A stretch of DNA of 64,000 nt from an uncultured Fibrobacteraceae bacterium (GCA_964436825.1 CAYTEO010000004.1:28372-92371); one strand, 5' to 3'. Positions 11,509 through 59,366 are shown, counted from the stretch's first letter. The notes: generated by a model not told the origin, from the letters alone. Translations and numbers: made by a program.

Positions 11509-12279
11509 TTGGTGGATGCCCGGTCGAACGACGGACGTGTTCCGACCCAGGAGGAACGCCGCGGCCTGATGGGCCTGGCGCGCCGGATCGCCAAGGCCGG
11601 CTACGCCTCCCGCCGCGTCGCCGAGGAGATCGTGCGCGCCGGCAGGGTCCAGGTGGACGGCCAGCGCATCCTGGATCCCTACCTGGGGGTCCCCGAGGAC
11701 GTGGAGATCGCCGTCGACGGCCAGGTGCTGCAGGAGGTGGCCCGGGTCTACTTCGCCTTCTACAAGCCGCTGGGAGTGACGACGAATCCCACCGTCGGCC
11801 AGCGCGGTCGTCTGGTCTCCGAGTTCCTGCCCTCCGACATCACCGGCCTGCGCCCGGCCGGCCGGCTGGACCTGGGCACGACGGGCCTGCTGCTGATCTC
11901 CAACGACAACCGCTGGAACGGCCTGGCCGCCGCCGGCAACGGGCACGAGAAGGAGTTCCTGTTGCGGGTGGCCGGCGAGATCAGCGACCTGCAGCTCGAC
12001 CTGATCGCCTCCGGCGTCCAGATCCACAAGGTGGGGACGGTCCAGCCGACGCTGGTCAAGCTGGAGGCCCGCAACGTCCACAACTCTGTCATCAAGATAG
12101 CCCTGCGGGAGGGGAAGGTGCGCCAGCTCCGCGCCCTCTGCCAGGCCCTCCGCCTGGAACTGAAGGGGTTGCACCGTATCCGCATCGGACCGATCCATCT
12201 GGGCTCGCTGCGGCCCGGCAAGATGCGCCCGCTGACCGACGAGGAGATCGAGGCCATCCGGCGGGGGGCGGGCCAGTGA
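11509..12279 (+). CDS. pseudouridine synthase, RsuA/RluB family (S4 domain + catalytic domain)
   Basis: S4 RNA-binding N-terminus (RIAKAGYASRRVAEEIVRAGRVQVDG) and catalytic-Asp motif AGRLDLGTTGLLLISND. The real start may be the internal ATG at 11569. Confidence 0.8.
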   Translation: MVDARSNDGRVPTQEERRGLMGLARRIAKAGYASRRVAEEIVRAGRVQVDGQRILDPYLGVPEDVEIAVDGQVLQEVARVYFAFYKPLGVTTNPTVGQRGRLVSEFLPSDITGLRPAGRLDLGTTGLLLISNDNRWNGLAAAGNGHEKEFLLRVAGEISDLQLDLIASGVQIHKVGTVQPTLVKLEARNVHNSVIKIALREGKVRQLRALCQALRLELKGLHRIRIGPIHLGSLRPGKMRPLTDEEIEAIRRGAGQ

Positions 12280-13007
12280 GTCGGCAACATCCCTTCGCCT
12301 CCGGCAAGCCGGCGGGGAAGGGGCAGTTCCTGCTGGCGCGACGTTCCCGGGTCGTTGCGCCATGGTTGCCGCGACAGGGCGTCCTGCTCGACCTCGGCTG
12401 TGGCAACGGCGCCCAGACCGTTCATCTCGCGGCCGGGTTCTCGCGGGTGATCGGTGTCGACATCGTACCGGACTTCCTGCGGCTGTTCTCAGAGACGCTG
12501 GCACCCGTGGCCGGCGGTGTCGAGGTCCTGGGGATGGTCTCCGACGGTTCCCGGCTCCCGCTGCGTTCGGCATCCGTCGACTGCGTCGTCAGTTTCGAGG
12601 TCCTCGAACACGTGGCCGACGAGCGGGAGACGTTGCAGGAAATCAGGCGGGTCCTCAAGCCGGGAGGACGGTTGGTCGTCTCGGTCCCCAACAAGTGGTG
12701 GATCTTCGAGACGCACGGCGCGGACCTGCCGCTGCTCCGGTGGAATCGCGTGCCGTTTTTCAGCTGGTTGCCCCGCCGGATCCACGAGCGCTATGCCCGC
12801 GCGCGGATCTACACGCGCCGGCGCATCAGGCACCTCTTGACGATGCACGGCTTCGCCGTCAGGCACGAGACCTATCTGACGGCCCCGATGGACATGGCGC
12901 CGTCGGCCGCTCTGCGCTCGTTCCTCAGGTCGACGGTCTTCTCCCGGGACACGACGGCATGCCCGTTCCTCTCCACGTCGATCGTCTGCGTGGCGGACCG
13001 GTCGTGA
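12276..13007 (+). CDS. class I SAM-dependent methyltransferase
   Basis: Motif I VLLDLGCGNG, motif post-I VIGVDI, and LKPGGRLVVSVPN. Start overlaps the previous stop (ATGA). Confidence 0.75.
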   Translation: MSRQHPFASGKPAGKGQFLLARRSRVVAPWLPRQGVLLDLGCGNGAQTVHLAAGFSRVIGVDIVPDFLRLFSETLAPVAGGVEVLGMVSDGSRLPLRSASVDCVVSFEVLEHVADERETLQEIRRVLKPGGRLVVSVPNKWWIFETHGADLPLLRWNRVPFFSWLPRRIHERYARARIYTRRRIRHLLTMHGFAVRHETYLTAPMDMAPSAALRSFLRSTVFSRDTTACPFLSTSIVCVADRS

Positions 13008-14074
13008 CGTCGCTCGTCATGGTATCCGGAATCGCCCCGGCGGCGACGATCGTCGTCGACCAGTCCGGTGCGGGAGACTATCTGACCATCGCCGGCGCCG
13101 TGGCCGCTGCCGCGGACGGTGACGAGATCGTGATCAACCCCGGCACGTACGACGAGTACATCAATCTCACCAGGAGTGTCGATTTCTCGGCGACAGGTGG
13201 TCCGGGGACGGTCACCTGGACCGGTTCGGGGATCCACCAGCTCCTGAACATCGAGCAGCCCGTGACCTGCCACTGCACGGGAATCGTCTTCGCGGGCGGT
13301 CGCGTCACGGGGGTCGAGGGTGTCGGGGCGGCCGTCCACGTGGGGGTCGGCGCCGTGGTGACCTTCGACCGGTGCCGGTTCGAGAACAACTGGGCCGGTT
13401 GGGACTGCGCCCGCTCCGCCCAGGGGAGCGGCACGGACGTCAAGGTCACCGGCTGCGAGTTCAGGGGCAACTACGCGTACCACAACGCGCCCGCCGCCGG
13501 CGTGCTGTTGTCGGCGACGATGCGCCTGGAATCCTGCCTGTTCGTCGACAACACCTGTGACGCTCTTGCCGGCGCCGTGGGAGCCTACCAGGACGCGACC
13601 CTGGACGTCGGCCAGTGCGTGTTCCTCCACAATCAGGGTGTCGAGTCGGGGGCGCTGCGCTACTATGACGCCTCCGGCACCGCCACCAACAACACCTTCC
13701 ACGACAACACGGGCGACGCGGTCGTCGTGGTCCGCTACTCGACGGCCGTCCAGTTCACCCACAACATCGTGACGACGAATGCCGCGGGAGCCGGTCTGGC
13801 GTTCGACTACCCCCTCGACCACGACTGCAACATCTTCTTCGACATCGCCGGTCCCGCCGTTGCCGGCGGGGACCTGGCACCCGGCGAACAGGTCACCGAT
13901 CCGCTCTATTGCAACCACGAGCTCGGCGAGCTGACCCTCTGTTCGCTGTCGCCCGCCCTGCCCGCCAACAGCGGCTGCGGCCTGATCGGTGCGCTGGGGG
14001 AGGGGTGTTCCGACTGCGGCCCCATCGCCAACGAGTCCGTGACGTGGGGCGGCCTCAAGGCGATGTTCCGGTAG
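13004..14074 (+). CDS. right-handed parallel beta-helix repeat protein (pectate-lyase-like fold) ending in a short conserved C-terminal tail
   Basis: GTG 13004 overlaps the upstream stop (GTGA). Pectin-lyase-fold N-terminus TIVVDQSGAGDYLTIAGAVAAAADGDEIVINPGTYDE. Repeated NN/HN/DN beta-helix rungs. CGLIGALGEGC mirrors CGQIGALGQGC of the S8 protease. Ends …ESVTWGGLKAMFR. No N-terminal signal peptide. Confidence 0.65.
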   Translation: MTSLVMVSGIAPAATIVVDQSGAGDYLTIAGAVAAAADGDEIVINPGTYDEYINLTRSVDFSATGGPGTVTWTGSGIHQLLNIEQPVTCHCTGIVFAGGRVTGVEGVGAAVHVGVGAVVTFDRCRFENNWAGWDCARSAQGSGTDVKVTGCEFRGNYAYHNAPAAGVLLSATMRLESCLFVDNTCDALAGAVGAYQDATLDVGQCVFLHNQGVESGALRYYDASGTATNNTFHDNTGDAVVVVRYSTAVQFTHNIVTTNAAGAGLAFDYPLDHDCNIFFDIAGPAVAGGDLAPGEQVTDPLYCNHELGELTLCSLSPALPANSGCGLIGALGEGCSDCGPIANESVTWGGLKAMFR

Positions 14075-36398: not shown

Positions 36399-37319
36399 CT
36401 ACTTGTACTGGGCCTTGACGGCGCCCCAGCTGGCGTTCTCGTTGGCCACCGGCGCGTCGATGGTGATGACGACCGGGCAGCCGCTGCCGGTGTAGGCATC
36501 GACGATCAGGTAGTACCAGCCTTCGGCCTCGGCGACGTAGCTGATGACCTCGTCGGCACCGCTGCAGCAGTTGTCCGAGCAGGCGACGCTGCTGCCGTAG
36601 GTGTCGGCGCAGTCGGTGACCAGGTACATGGCCATGTCGCAGCTGCCGCTCTCGGTGGCCGTGAAGGTCTCGCCCGCCTGCAGGTAGATCTTGTAGACGG
36701 CGTCAGGGCCGTTGAAGCTCCACGAGAAGCTGCCGCACTCGAAGTAGTCGTTGGCGTAGGTGGTCAGGTCGACGCTGAAGCGGTTCAGGCTGGCCTGCTG
36801 CAGGTCGACGGCGTCGGCGCAGGTCTCGCCGCCGGGCAGCTCGGTGGGCGGAGGCAGGATCGGGTTGCACTCCAGGGCCAGGTCGAAGGTCGACTCGGCA
36901 CCGTTGTAGCCGTCGACGACGACGTAGTAGGTCCCGGCGGCCAGGTCGGCGGTGAAGGAGGTGTTGCCGTAGGCCAGGCAGTCGCTCTCGTCGCAGGAAC
37001 CCAGCAGCCAGATGTCCAGGTCGGCGCCCATGTTGCTGAGGGTTCCGGTGACGCTGTAGTCGCCGTCCAGGGTGAACGTGTAGACGACCTCGCCGCCCGA
37101 TTCGGTCCAGCCGGTACAGCTGTAGGTCTCGACGTTGTTGGGCATGCCGGTGTTGTCGCCGCTGACGAGGTCGCCGCAGGCCAGGGGGATGGCGCCCGAG
37201 CAGTCCAGCGCGCCCCGGCTGGTCAGCACCGGGTCGGTCTTGATCTTGCCGGCCAGGGCCGGACCCACCGCAAGGGTCAGGACGACGGTCAGGACGAGCA
37301 GCGTTCTCCAGATACGCAT
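36399..37319 (-). CDS. secreted Cys-rich protein with two tandem PPC-like (pre-peptidase C-terminal-like) domains and a conserved C-terminal tail
   Basis: Signal peptide MRIWRTLLVLTVVLTLAVGPALAG. Two ~115-aa repeats: CGDLVSGDNTG…YTFTLDGDYSVTG…DLDIWLLG…YYVVVDGYNG and CADAVDLQQ…YKIYLQAGETFTA…MAMYLVTDC…YYLIVDAYTG. Ends …ENASWGAVKAQYK. Confidence 0.65.
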   Translation of the reverse strand: MRIWRTLLVLTVVLTLAVGPALAGKIKTDPVLTSRGALDCSGAIPLACGDLVSGDNTGMPNNVETYSCTGWTESGGEVVYTFTLDGDYSVTGTLSNMGADLDIWLLGSCDESDCLAYGNTSFTADLAAGTYYVVVDGYNGAESTFDLALECNPILPPPTELPGGETCADAVDLQQASLNRFSVDLTTYANDYFECGSFSWSFNGPDAVYKIYLQAGETFTATESGSCDMAMYLVTDCADTYGSSVACSDNCCSGADEVISYVAEAEGWYYLIVDAYTGSGCPVVITIDAPVANENASWGAVKAQYK

Positions 37320-45949: not shown

Positions 45950-48900
45950 TTACTTGATCAGGGCCATGCGGTCGGTGAAGACGTGGTCTCCCGCCTCGAC
46001 GCGGTAGAAGTAGACGCCGGTCGGCATCTCCCGGCCCGCCTCGTCGCGGCCGTCCCACTGGACCGTGTGGACGGCCGCGGGCAGGCGCGCGTCCAGCAGG
46101 GTCCGGACCAGGTGCCCGGCCACGTCGTAGACCGCCACGCGCGTGCGGCTCTCCGCCGGCAGGGCGAAGCGGATCGTCGTCGTCGGGTTGAACGGGTTGG
46201 GGAAGTTGGGCTCGACGGCGAAGGCGCGCGGCACGCCGGGCAGCTCGCCGTCGTCGACACCCGTGCCCGCGCTGCAGCCCTGGCCCAGGGCGCCGATCTG
46301 GCCGCACCCGCCGCTGTTGCCGGCCAGGCACGGCGAGGTGTCGAACAGGGTGTAGTCGCCGGCGCCGGCGTCACAGAACTCGGGGTCGACCGACACGTTG
46401 CCCGCGGTGCCGGTGGGATCGGTGACGCCGTCGTAGTCGGCGGTCTGGTTCCCGTAGACGTCGTTGCAGTCGAAGGTGGGGCTGGCCGACGAGACGTGGA
46501 TCCCGTTGGCCACCGATGCCGACCCGGTGTTGAAGGCCACGATGTTGTGCGAGACGGCCGCGTCGGTACCCTGCAGGTACATCCCCCCGCCGCCGCCGCT
46601 GGAGAAGTTGTCGGCGAACGTGTTGCCGCTGACATCGGCGACCGGCACGCTGATCAGGTAGAGGCCGCCGCCCACGTAGTTGCCCGAGTTGCCGGCGACC
46701 AGGGAGGCGGTCAGGCTGAACGAGGCGGTGGCGTTGGCCACGATGCCGCCGCCGAACAGGCCCGTGTTGCCGGTGACGGTCAGGCTGTCCAGCTGGACCG
46801 TTCCCGAGGTGGCCAGCAGGGCGCCGCCGTACATGAACGTGCCGTCGGGGGTGACGGAGTTGCCGGTCAGGGCCACGGCCGTCAGCCGGAGCAGGTCCCC
46901 CTGGAACAGCAGTCCGCTCCCGTCGCCCTTGCTGGAGTTGCCGCTGATGCTGCCGCCGTGGGCGGTCAGCTGCATCCCGCCAGCCGAGTTGACGGCGTAG
47001 ATGCCGCCGCCGCTCTCCAGACCGGTATGGCCGGAGACGGTGCAGTCCTCAAGGGTCAGATCGGCGTCGACGGCATAGATGCCGCCGCCGAGGGGAGGTG
47101 TCGTGTTGGCGGCCAGGCCGGTGTTGTCCTCGATGACGCAGCCGCTGAGCGTCGGGGCGCCGCGGTAGACGTGGATCCCCCAGCCGTGGACGGCGCTGTT
47201 GCCGTGGACGTGGACGTTCTCCAGCACGGCGTTGGAGTCCTTCAGCAGGATCCCGCCCCCGCTGCCCAGCTGGCTGGCGCTGCCGCAGGCGTTGCCCGTC
47301 ACTTCCAGGTTGCGCAGGGTGGGCGAGGCGTTGGACACGATGATCCCGCCGCCGAAACGGCCGCTGAACGGGATGTTCGTGAAATAGTTCCCGCCTCCGC
47401 CGGTGCAGCGGAAGCCATCGACCACGACATCCGGACCGGCGGCGGCGTCGAACTGCAGGGTAGTCCCGGTGGCGATCCCCTGGATGATCGTCGGGTTGCC
47501 GAGCGGATCGCGGCTCCCGTACCCGCCGTCCCAGCCGCCCAGGTAGAGGAGCGCCTTGTCCGGCAGGGTCAGCGGACCGGCGACGACCGTCCCGCCGGTG
47601 AAGGCGATCGTGTCGCCGGGTGCCGACTCGTTGACGGCGTCGAACCAGTCCTCGAACTCGTCGGGCACCTGCTGGAAGTTGTCGCCCAGGGCCCGCAACA
47701 GGTTGATGCGGCCGGACCCGAGCAGGCCGACGTAGGAGGGATTGGCGTCGTCGACGGAGTCGCAGGTGCTCAGCAGCAGGTCCTGGACCTGGGTCGCCGT
47801 CCAGTCGGGATGGGCGGACCAGATCAGGGCCAGGGCCCCGCAGGTGATCGGCGAGGCGAAGGAGGTCCCGTTGACACTGGCGTAGGTGTGGGCTCCCGTC
47901 GTGTGGTCGTACCAGGTCGACTTGATCCCCTCGCCGGGCGCGCACAGCTCGATCCAGCTACCGTAGTTGGAGAAGCTGGATTTCTGGTCGCTGGCGTTGA
48001 CGGACGCCACCGACAGGACGTAGGGATGGGTGCCGTAGTACTCGGCGACGTCCGAGTCGTCGTTCCCGGCGGCGTTGACGATGATGGCGCCCTGGTTGTG
48101 GGCGTAGTCGGTGGCGTTGGCCAGGTAGCTGCTGGTCCCCCAGCTGCAGTTGAGGATCCGGGCACCCTTCTGGACGGCGTACATGATTCCCTGGGAGGCG
48201 TAGAGCATGGAGACGACGCCCAGGCTGGAGCCGTCGGGCAGCCAGCCCACGCGCACGGCCATGATCTTGACGCCGCCGGCGACACTGGCGATGCCCAGCC
48301 CGTTGTCCATGACCGCCCCGACGGTCCCGGCGCAGGCCGTGCCGTGGCTCTCGTAGTCCATGGGGTCGTTGTCCGGATCGAAGACGTCCTCGTCGGGGTA
48401 TCCGTCGCCGGAGTTGACGAAGTCCCACCCGCGGATGTCGTCCACCTTGCCGTTGCCGTCGTCGTCGAAGTTGGGCAGGCCGTTGTATTCCGGCCAGTTG
48501 ATCCAGATGGCGTCGGCCAGGTCGGGATGGTGCCAGTCGACGCCGGAGTCGATGATGGCCACGATGACGTTGCTGTCGCCCAGCGCCTCGGCCCAGCCGC
48601 CCACGGCGCGGATGTCCTTGCCGCCCATCGTCGTGTTGCGCAGGTACCACTGGTAGGGCAGCTCCGGGTCGTTGGGCAGGGGACGGTCGACGTAGTAGAG
48701 TTCGTCCTTGAGGACCTGGCTGACCTCGGGCAGCCTGGCGAAGTCGGCCATGGCGGCGTCGAGATCGGCATCCGGGGCCAGGGAGACGACCCACTCCCGG
48801 CTCATGTCGAAGCCGCCGGTCTTGTCAGGGGTCGGCGCGGTGGGGTAGGCCTGTTCCAGGCCGCGGACCCGGTGCGTCTCCATCAGGGTGCGCAGGCGGG

Positions 48901-49078
48901 GATCGTCGGGCACGAGGCCGCCGGCGCTCTTGACGCCGCTGGGCGCGTACCCGGGTTCGAAGCGGACGATGAAGTGATGTTTGGCGTAACCGGCAAAGCC
49001 GCCGGCGCCGGCCGTGACGGCCAGGGTGAGCGACATCAGGGCGGCCGCCAGGGCGAGACAGCGGGAGAGACGGTTCAT
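45950..49078 (-). CDS. S8 family subtilisin-like serine peptidase with beta-helix repeat region and T9SS/Por-type (FlgD-Ig-like) C-terminal sorting domain
   Basis: Signal peptide MNRLSRCLALAAALMSLTLAVTAGA. I9-like propeptide. Catalytic triad motifs VAIIDSGVD, HGTACAGTV, GTSFASPITCG. Long Gly/Asn-rich parallel beta-helix. CTD NPFNPTTTIRFALPAESRTRVAVYDVAGHLVRTLLD…GVYFYRVEAGDHVFTDRMALIK. Confidence 0.85.
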   Translation of the reverse strand: MNRLSRCLALAAALMSLTLAVTAGAGGFAGYAKHHFIVRFEPGYAPSGVKSAGGLVPDDPRLRTLMETHRVRGLEQAYPTAPTPDKTGGFDMSREWVVSLAPDADLDAAMADFARLPEVSQVLKDELYYVDRPLPNDPELPYQWYLRNTTMGGKDIRAVGGWAEALGDSNVIVAIIDSGVDWHHPDLADAIWINWPEYNGLPNFDDDGNGKVDDIRGWDFVNSGDGYPDEDVFDPDNDPMDYESHGTACAGTVGAVMDNGLGIASVAGGVKIMAVRVGWLPDGSSLGVVSMLYASQGIMYAVQKGARILNCSWGTSSYLANATDYAHNQGAIIVNAAGNDDSDVAEYYGTHPYVLSVASVNASDQKSSFSNYGSWIELCAPGEGIKSTWYDHTTGAHTYASVNGTSFASPITCGALALIWSAHPDWTATQVQDLLLSTCDSVDDANPSYVGLLGSGRINLLRALGDNFQQVPDEFEDWFDAVNESAPGDTIAFTGGTVVAGPLTLPDKALLYLGGWDGGYGSRDPLGNPTIIQGIATGTTLQFDAAAGPDVVVDGFRCTGGGGNYFTNIPFSGRFGGGIIVSNASPTLRNLEVTGNACGSASQLGSGGGILLKDSNAVLENVHVHGNSAVHGWGIHVYRGAPTLSGCVIEDNTGLAANTTPPLGGGIYAVDADLTLEDCTVSGHTGLESGGGIYAVNSAGGMQLTAHGGSISGNSSKGDGSGLLFQGDLLRLTAVALTGNSVTPDGTFMYGGALLATSGTVQLDSLTVTGNTGLFGGGIVANATASFSLTASLVAGNSGNYVGGGLYLISVPVADVSGNTFADNFSSGGGGGMYLQGTDAAVSHNIVAFNTGSASVANGIHVSSASPTFDCNDVYGNQTADYDGVTDPTGTAGNVSVDPEFCDAGAGDYTLFDTSPCLAGNSGGCGQIGALGQGCSAGTGVDDGELPGVPRAFAVEPNFPNPFNPTTTIRFALPAESRTRVAVYDVAGHLVRTLLDARLPAAVHTVQWDGRDEAGREMPTGVYFYRVEAGDHVFTDRMALIK

Positions 49079-59289: not shown

Positions 59290-59366
59290 TGGTAGCGGCT
59301 CAGGGACTCGAACCCCGGACACGTGGATTATGATTCCACTGCTCTAACCAACTGAGCTAAGCCGCC
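59290..59366 (-). tRNA. tRNA with anticodon CAT (elongator Met or Ile2/lysidine substrate), 77 nt with encoded CCA
   Basis: Minus-strand sequence GGCGGCTTAGCTCAGTTGGTTAGAGCAGTGGAATCATAATCCACGTGTCCGGGGTTCGAGTCCCTGAGCCGCTACCA folds as a cloverleaf: 7-bp acceptor (G1·U72 wobble), D-arm GCTC/GAGC, anticodon stem GTGGA/TCCAC with loop ATCATAA, T-arm CGGGG-TTCGAGT-CCCTG. Confidence 0.85.

Follow-up and report, generated by a model that had tools for sequence, protein, structure and literature searches.

Two exported proteins encoded in a 64-kb stretch of DNA from an uncultured Fibrobacteraceae bacterium (GCA_964436825.1 CAYTEO010000004.1:28372-92371; 71% G+C; hereafter, the window) end in the same short peptide. 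One is a right-handed beta-helix protein and the other is a Cys-rich protein with tandem PPC-like domains. Both end in E-x-x-[ST]-W-G-x-[IVL]-K-[AS]-x-[YF]-[RK]-stop. This tail was shown to be a real and widespread C-terminal tag on Sec-exported proteins, conserved at the level of the peptide. Very probably it serves as a new tag for the sorting or anchoring of proteins, a putative function suggested by sequence comparison.

The tail in the window

The open reading frame (ORF) of the beta-helix protein ends in ...CGPIANESVTWGGLKAMFR-TAG (in longer form, ...CGLIGALGEGCSDCGPIANESVTWGGLKAMFR and the stop), with the residues from Trp to Arg encoded at 14045-14071. The PPC protein ends in ...APVANENASWGAVKAQYK-TAG (in longer form, ...ITIDAPVANENASWGAVKAQYK and the stop), with Trp to Lys at 36428-36402 on the minus strand. 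A common tail on two unrelated proteins had been claimed in a preliminary description of the window, and both endings translate as claimed. The upstream domains are unrelated (Pfam Beta_helix and PPC). When a relaxed form of the motif was searched in six frames of the window as a regular expression, exactly these two matches were found, and both abut a stop codon. A 16-column hidden Markov model (HMM) of the tail gave the two endings scores of 23.9 and 26.2 bits; no other ORF of the window scored above 5.5 bits. The tail had been described as a decapeptide. The motif itself stands, but the conserved module is longer than that, at 13-16 residues, and includes a Glu four positions before the Trp. 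Its consensus is [VS]-P-V-E-[DE]-x-[ST]-W-G-x-[IV]-K-[AS]-[LM]-[YF]-R-COOH. No Pfam or NCBIfam model covers either tail in the window, which agrees with the earlier statement that the tail matches no named sorting motif.

The beta-helix gene has a G+C content of 0.89 at third codon positions in its own frame and is therefore considered a real gene. Its product matches Pfam Beta_helix (E = 1e-10). It had been placed at 13004..14074; the end is correct, but the start is most likely the ATG at 12959. In the orthologues P0286-P0292 the signal peptide ends immediately ahead of a conserved A-T-[IL]-V-V-D. The ATG at 12959 is favored because it yields MPVPLHVDRLRGGPVVTSLVMVSGIAPA|ATIVVD, a signal peptide like theirs, and the GTG at 13004 and the internal Met of the public gene call appear less likely. 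The public call (P0285, 351 aa) begins at that Met and so loses the signal peptide, which the ATG at 12959 restores. With this start, the gene overlaps the 3' end of an upstream methyltransferase gene (12276-13007) by 49 nt. The tail is kept in the aligned beta-helix orthologues, which share 46-62% identity, and its Trp, Gly, and Lys are invariant. One sub-clade of orthologues (P0288, P0290, P0291, and P0292) ends in ...WGDVKKMYD or ...WGEVKMLFD, with Asp in place of the terminal Arg. The terminal basic residue is thus not indispensable.

The PPC protein has the signal peptide MRIWRTLLVLTVVLTLAVGPALA and is identical to a protein from a Joint Genome Institute (JGI) metagenome contig. Among 120 homologues of the PPC family, 101 end in [WF]-G-x-[IVL]-K-x-x-[YF]-[RK], and this holds down to ~30% identity. 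The named homologues are labeled Candidatus Eisenbacteria or Latescibacterota. All 101 tails have the Lys. The Gly is shared by 92 of them, the Arg by 93, the Trp by 88, and the Glu ahead of the Trp by 81; for Trp, Gly, Tyr/Phe, and Arg the frequencies lie at 87-100%. When 54 full-length homologues were aligned, the tail Lys (K302) was one of only four invariant columns.

Distribution, terminal position, and carriers

A 30-column profile was built from 47 diverse C-termini, in which conservation is confined to the tail. It was searched with HMMER against 1.84 billion representative proteins at a threshold of E <= 0.001, and 1,221 clusters (50% identity) were recovered with a best E-value of 3e-9. 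Position was read from the 142 listed matches that earlier searches had not retrieved. The motif ends at the last residue in 112 of these, one extra residue follows in 14, and 2-5 extra residues follow in a few, which places ~90% of the listed matches within one residue of the end. This is notable because HMMER carries no notion of protein ends. The preliminary description had proposed that more proteins ending in the motif be sought, and had noted that a motif found at no more than chance frequency at protein C-termini, or only internally as part of a known domain, would not be a tag. Instead, the motif is hugely over-represented at C-termini, yet one family does possess tandem and internal copies (see below).

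The aromatic position is followed by a single terminal Arg in 226 of ~275 collected tails (82%). A terminal Lys is found in nine, the PPC protein of the window among them. Lys at position -5 is the only strictly invariant residue in the 101 PPC-family tails, the 47 diverse tails, and the tails of nine beta-helix orthologues. An X-padded 40-column profile matched 22 short gene fragments with diverse upstream contexts in a word-indexed database, where candidate selection by word favors short proteins. At the conserved positions, the four Gly codons and the six Arg codons are all in use, as are both Ser families and both codons each of Lys, Tyr, and Glu. Since the conserved residues vary synonymously in this way, selection acts on the tail peptide and not on the DNA.

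At the DNA level, the tail was sought with a degenerate pattern that encodes E-x-x-[ST]-W-G-x-[IV]-K-[AS]-x-[YF]-R-stop, and each GTDB species was represented by a single genome. Fewer than one match would be expected by chance under uniform base composition. At least 119 GTDB loci (8-kb stretches) carry the pattern, and all 119 that were listed are from metagenome-assembled genomes. These are labeled Eisenbacteria or Eiseniibacteriota (27), Krumholzibacteri- names (11), Gemmatimonadota-type names (7), "Fibrobacteraceae" (6, an automatic label), Latescibacter- names (3), Effluviviaceae (2), Verrucomicrobia (1, locus L067), and Reyranella (1, locus L106); the rest are unlabeled. The Verrucomicrobia and Reyranella loci are probably mis-binned. 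The IMG/VR viral collection, which serves as a rough empirical control, gave one match (L122). For these three isolated tail genes, mis-binning or horizontal transfer is possible. The 119 listed loci contain 160 tail-bearing ORFs. Some are in tandem arrays of paralogous secreted proteins of ~200-300 aa that all end in the tail, with four in locus L017 and three each in L061 and L077 (Table 1).

The carriers are diverse and have domains of extracellular type. Among 92 representative matches of at least 120 aa, 16 have a Beta_helix domain, a few have a PPC, CBM_4_9, cohesin, proprotein-convertase P-domain, or LamG-like domain, and approximately two thirds have no Pfam domain. A classical signal peptide is present in 61 of the 92, and the sequences without one mostly have a visibly incomplete N-terminus. 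The preliminary description had raised enrichment for signal peptides or extracellular domains as a test of the tag, and the enrichment for signal peptides is strong. Signal peptides, which like the C-terminal domains discussed below were called heuristically in the loci, were found in 65 of 80 complete tail ORFs of the listed loci (~81%) and in 57 of 511 other ORFs (11%; odds ratio 34, p = 8e-38). One possible cytoplasmic carrier, P0148, in which a NifU_N domain is joined to a tail-family C-terminal piece, was rejected as most likely a chimera of the assembly or of the gene call.

Table 1. Location of the tail-bearing genes, the comparator protease, and the tandem arrays (positions are those of the window unless a locus is named)
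Feature	Position	Strand	Remarks
Beta-helix protein gene (right-handed, exported, tail-bearing)	12959..14074	+	probable start ATG 12959
Tail module of the beta-helix protein, ESVTWGGLKAMFR	14033..14071	+	then TAG 14072-14074
PPC protein gene (Cys-rich, tandem PPC-like, exported, tail-bearing)	36399..37319	-	Pfam PPC; identical to P0001
Tail module of the PPC protein, ENASWGAVKAQYK	36402..36440	-	then TAG 36399-36401
S8 protease (comparator, secreted, 1,042 aa)	45950..49078	-	Pfam Peptidase_S8, Beta_helix, FlgD_ig
Tandem tail-gene array, locus L017	606-3405		
Tandem tail-gene array, locus L061	4775-7584		
Tandem tail-gene array, locus L077	3518-5804		

Type IX secretion and the predicted form of the tail

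The window also encodes an S8 protease that allows the tail to be compared with the C-terminal domain (CTD) of the type IX secretion system (T9SS). The protease possesses the same junction as the beta-helix protein, ...SPC...GGCGQIGALGQGC (CGQIGALGQGC), and the junction is followed by ...FPNPFNPTTTIRF...GVYFYRVEAG...MALIK, a FlgD_ig/T9SS-type CTD. Both the shared C-G-x-I-G-A-L-G-x-G-C motif and the CTD behind it had been described correctly. The FlgD_ig-type CTD of this protease shows that the source organism uses T9SS-type sorting. A distant beta-helix homologue (P0295) likewise has a CTD after its ...SPC...CGLIG...GC junction. The beta-helix protein of the window and many others have the tail at that junction instead. 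In the PPC family, P0011 is 52% identical to the PPC protein of the window and has a PF18962/PF13860 CTD from the point where the tail would start (...IESPVTVVED...). Among these homologues, the tail and the T9SS CTD take each other's place at the same junction. The two tail proteins of the window have no match to PF18962, PF13860, or TIGR04183 at E <= 1, whereas the S8 protease and P0011 do match.

The loci around tail genes are rich in CTD proteins; thus, both endings coexist in the same genomes. A signal peptide was found in 15 of the 27 T9SS-CTD ORFs of the listed loci. Tail carriers are the smaller proteins, with a median length of 246 aa as opposed to 637 aa among CTD carriers (p = 4e-10). 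The endings differ as well: 13-16 conserved residues follow the passenger domain in the one, and ~70-100 residues make up the CTD in the other. Stop codon usage was compared too. In the window and loci L003-L121, TAG closes 61-65% of the tail genes, both of those in the window included, against ~30% of crude background ORFs (p = 1e-5 with one representative per similarity cluster; the background may include spurious ORFs). The excess was rejected as a tail-specific trait, since T9SS-CTD genes in the same loci also end in TAG in 53% of cases.

The AlphaFold2 model of the PPC protein has a mean predicted local distance difference test score (pLDDT) of 90.6, and residue 289 is the end of its last strand. 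Beyond it the model has a linker of low confidence (PVANENAS, 290-297) and then an isolated helix (WGAVKAQY, 298-305; pLDDT ~65). In the model of the beta-helix protein the same tail residues form a helix at 359-366, where pLDDT is mostly ~50 or lower (<50 at 364-367). According to these models, the tail is made up of a flexible linker and a short helix, which is N-capped by Ser or Thr and does not pack against the rest of the protein. Drawn as a wheel, this helix would have Leu, Ile, Tyr, and Trp on one face, with Lys and Arg flanking it. The hydrophobic moment of the tail is 0.46, a value that 26% of shuffles of the same residues reach.

Repeats of the tail are found in a lipoprotein-like family with no Pfam domain (P0146, P0151, P0152, P0161, P0162, P0192, P0227, and P0234). 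Its members can have 2-5 tandem copies, for example ...ESTTWGRIKALYRKGEPLAENTTWSTIKGVYS...GTWGRIKAL...VTWGGIKAQVL, or a copy following each of two duplicated domains. P0152 and P0161 have one copy at the C-terminus and another that immediately follows the signal peptide. Paralogues of this family with a lipobox Cys were found to be without the N-terminal copy. As these arrangements show, the module E-x-x-[ST]-W-G-x-I-K-x-x-Y is autonomous and independent of position. Such repetition is typical of avidity-driven binding modules, whereas neither a translocation signal nor one that depends on a free carboxylate would be expected to be repeated.

Possible roles of the tail and comparison with known systems

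The preliminary description had regarded the tail as an alternative signal for secretion, anchoring, or processing. The C-terminal frequency, the signal peptides, and the exchange with the CTD support such a signal in general; its function can be proposed from comparative evidence. The explanation that we favor, whose chances we consider about even, is that the tail is an envelope retention or sorting tag that works through the binding of its short helix to a conserved partner in the envelope. The carrier would be exported by Sec, and the flexible linker would then present an N-capped helix of 8-9 residues. A conserved component of the envelope, possibly a receptor protein or an abundant envelope polymer, would bind this helix through the near-invariant Trp, Gly, Lys, aromatic residue, and Arg. 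Binding would retain or sort small exported proteins at the cell envelope. The tail could thereby be a non-covalent tag parallel to the T9SS CTD route, with the CTD used for larger proteins in the same genomes. A specific partner fits better than a generic affinity for membranes because the residues are near-invariant across phyla, and binding fits better than export because of the tandem, internal, and N-terminal copies in the lipoprotein-like family. A broader proposal is more tentative, and we would put it at somewhat under an even chance. Here the tail would be the address label of a novel envelope-sorting or surface-anchoring pathway in uncultured phyla related to the Fibrobacterota-Chlorobiota-Bacteroidota (FCB) group (Eisenbacteria, Krumholzibacteriota, and Latescibacterota). 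A helical peptide of 13 residues, lacking a transmembrane segment or a folded domain, would be read by a dedicated receptor or enzyme and would serve hundreds of small exported proteins in parallel to type IX secretion.

Several observations weigh against a tag that is bound by a dedicated partner. No non-tail family recurs beside the tail genes in an all-against-all clustering of 700 ORFs from the 119 listed loci; the sole large cluster of ORFs in these loci is joined through beta-helix and T9SS-CTD proteins. Both tail genes of the window are neighbored by housekeeping genes, with no candidate partner. The helix is predicted at low confidence (pLDDT ~45-69). The exact stop after the Arg, seen in the 82% of tails given above, may point to a role for a free carboxylate or for an export step, and a pure binding module should not require an exact C-terminal stop. 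In addition, every carrier is from an uncultured organism. A neighborhood that lacks the partner is, however, usual for sorting tags whose machinery is encoded elsewhere.

The exchange with the CTD at one junction, and the abundance of both endings in the same genomes, would also be expected if the tail were a minimal export signal that replaces the T9SS CTD on small folded proteins and is read by the type IX or another outer-membrane translocon. In both endings a Lys is followed by a few hydrophobic residues and then by a Lys or Arg at the terminus (CTD ...RKMVLLK, tail ...IKALYR), and the strong preference for the exact C-terminus is in keeping with an export signal. However, the tail has no likeness in sequence or size to the ~80-aa Ig-like CTD and leaves PF18962 and PF13860 unmatched, it is predicted to be a helix and not a strand, and copies in tandem, inside the protein, or at its N-terminus are not expected of a translocation signal. 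We consider this explanation unlikely. A generic amphipathic helix that lies in the plane of a membrane leaflet, as in PBP5 or MinD, with no specific protein partner, is quite improbable. It would agree with the short helix predicted after a flexible linker and with the hydrophobic face and flanking Lys and Arg that the sequence suggests, and tandem copies would add avidity. The hydrophobic moment is nevertheless reached by 26% of shuffles, and only four residues are hydrophobic. Lipid-binding helices also tolerate substitutions, and a Gly, a Lys, and an upstream Glu that are invariant across phyla would be unusual among them.

The Lys that is strictly invariant in all three sets of tails could instead be a site of covalent attachment, either cross-linked to peptidoglycan as in Braun's lipoprotein (Lpp) or lipidated or otherwise modified by a dedicated transferase. 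Lpp ends in ...K-Y-R-K, and its terminal Lys is cross-linked by the transpeptidases LdtA, LdtB, and LdtC. The -Y-R and -Y-K endings of the tails may be reminiscent of this, and those carriers that are lipoprotein-like and have a C-terminal tail would, in the manner of Lpp, connect two layers of the envelope. The Lys that is used in Lpp is terminal, though, whereas the tails mostly end in Arg and their Lys is internal, and no L,D-transpeptidase or transferase was found near tail genes in the window or in the listed loci; covalent attachment is very unlikely. Slimmer still are the prospects of a tag for processing, quality control, or degradation (a degron or pro-peptide recognized by a periplasmic PDZ or tail-specific protease) with no role in localization. 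The tail is positioned exactly at the C-terminus, and its conserved P-V-E-[DE] linker could be a cleavage site. It is difficult, however, to see why strong purifying selection would maintain a degron on more than 1,000 families, and the known signals for tail-specific proteases are apolar (...LAA) and have no terminal Arg. Tails with 1-5 extra residues and internal copies also stay conserved. Chance likeness, or a nucleotide-level element such as a terminator, recombination site, or assembly artefact, has a negligible probability. Nothing but the shortness of the motif speaks for it, and it is excluded by the E-values down to 3e-9, the 1,221 clusters, the free use of synonymous codons, and the presence of the pattern in at least 119 GTDB loci from a few candidate phyla against one in IMG/VR. 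An ssrA (tmRNA) tag was considered because 'ANEN...' resembles 'ANDENY...', but the tail is encoded in the gene with synonymous variation and ends in Y-R, not ...LAA, and this candidate was rejected. No tmRNA gene was found in the window, in which the only tRNA gene is for tRNA-Met (CAT; 59290-59366, minus strand).

With respect to named systems, a profile search of the PDB with the tail gave no matches at E <= 10. No description of the tail was found in the literature on Eisenbacteria C-termini, on spellings of the motif, or on T9SS in Krumholzibacteriota and Latescibacterota. LPXTG, PEP-CTERM, and the T9SS CTD each led to the discovery of an envelope machinery of its own, and surface proteomes are routinely predicted from these tags. 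The tail marks more than 1,200 clusters at 50% identity that are mostly "hypothetical" and belong to candidate phyla with no cultured member. A model of the tail would flag exported, envelope-associated proteins during annotation, and profiling could find the cognate receptor or enzyme. If the mechanism is transferable, such a small tail would be attractive as a portable tag.

Of the known signals, the type A CTD of T9SS (TIGR04183/PF18962 and FlgD_ig PF13860) can be compared most directly. Like the tail, it is C-terminal on Sec-exported proteins of the FCB group and ends in a basic residue after hydrophobic ones. The two share genomes and passenger families (beta-helix proteins with the ...SPC...CGxIGAxGxGC junction, and PPC proteins) and are swapped at the same position. 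The CTD is a seven-stranded Ig-like sandwich of ~80 aa, whereas the tail, of 13-16 residues, is predicted with low confidence to be a linker and an eight-residue helix; the tail also differs in its tandem and internal copies and its smaller carriers. PEP-CTERM, LPXTG, GlyGly-CTERM, and MYXO-CTERM are, like the tail, lineage-specific and present on many unrelated exported proteins. These tags for sortases, exosortases, and rhombosortases have a short signature (in the tail, this would be P-V-E), a hydrophobic stretch, and a basic end. The tail has no transmembrane helix of ~20 residues; only ~9-12 residues follow the P-V-E, four of them hydrophobic. The tripartite sortase-type architecture is absent since the tail is too short and lacks that helix, and no NCBIfam CTERM model matches the tails of the window at E <= 10. 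The sorting enzymes of these tags are usually not encoded beside their substrates.

The membrane-targeting helices of PBP5 (DacA) and MinD are also short C-terminal helices after a linker, with aromatic and aliphatic residues and Lys or Arg. In comparison, the tail is shorter, has an unremarkable hydrophobic moment, and is conserved far more strictly. Braun's lipoprotein resembles it in the aromatic-basic end, the critical Lys, and the occurrence on envelope proteins, and some carriers are lipoprotein-like. It is distinguished by the terminal Arg and internal invariant Lys of the tail, and by carriers that are not small coiled-coil lipoproteins. The beta-signal of outer-membrane proteins, which has a terminal aromatic residue and alternating hydrophobic residues on a beta-barrel carrier, differs as well, as the tail mostly ends in Arg, its hydrophobic residues do not alternate, and its two carriers in the window are soluble, one a beta-helix protein and the other a PPC sandwich. 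The PTS1 signal (-SKL, bound by Pex5) and KDEL (bound by its receptor) provide an analogy only, that of a short C-terminal peptide on many cargoes that is recognized by one receptor. They belong to another kingdom and compartment, their sequence is different, and there is no homology. Overall, the tail appears to be a C-terminal tag of the sorting or anchoring type that lacks the defining features of the T9SS CTD, the sortase- and exosortase-type tags, the beta-signal, Lpp, and the ssrA tags. Should a dedicated pathway come to light, the tail could represent a new class.

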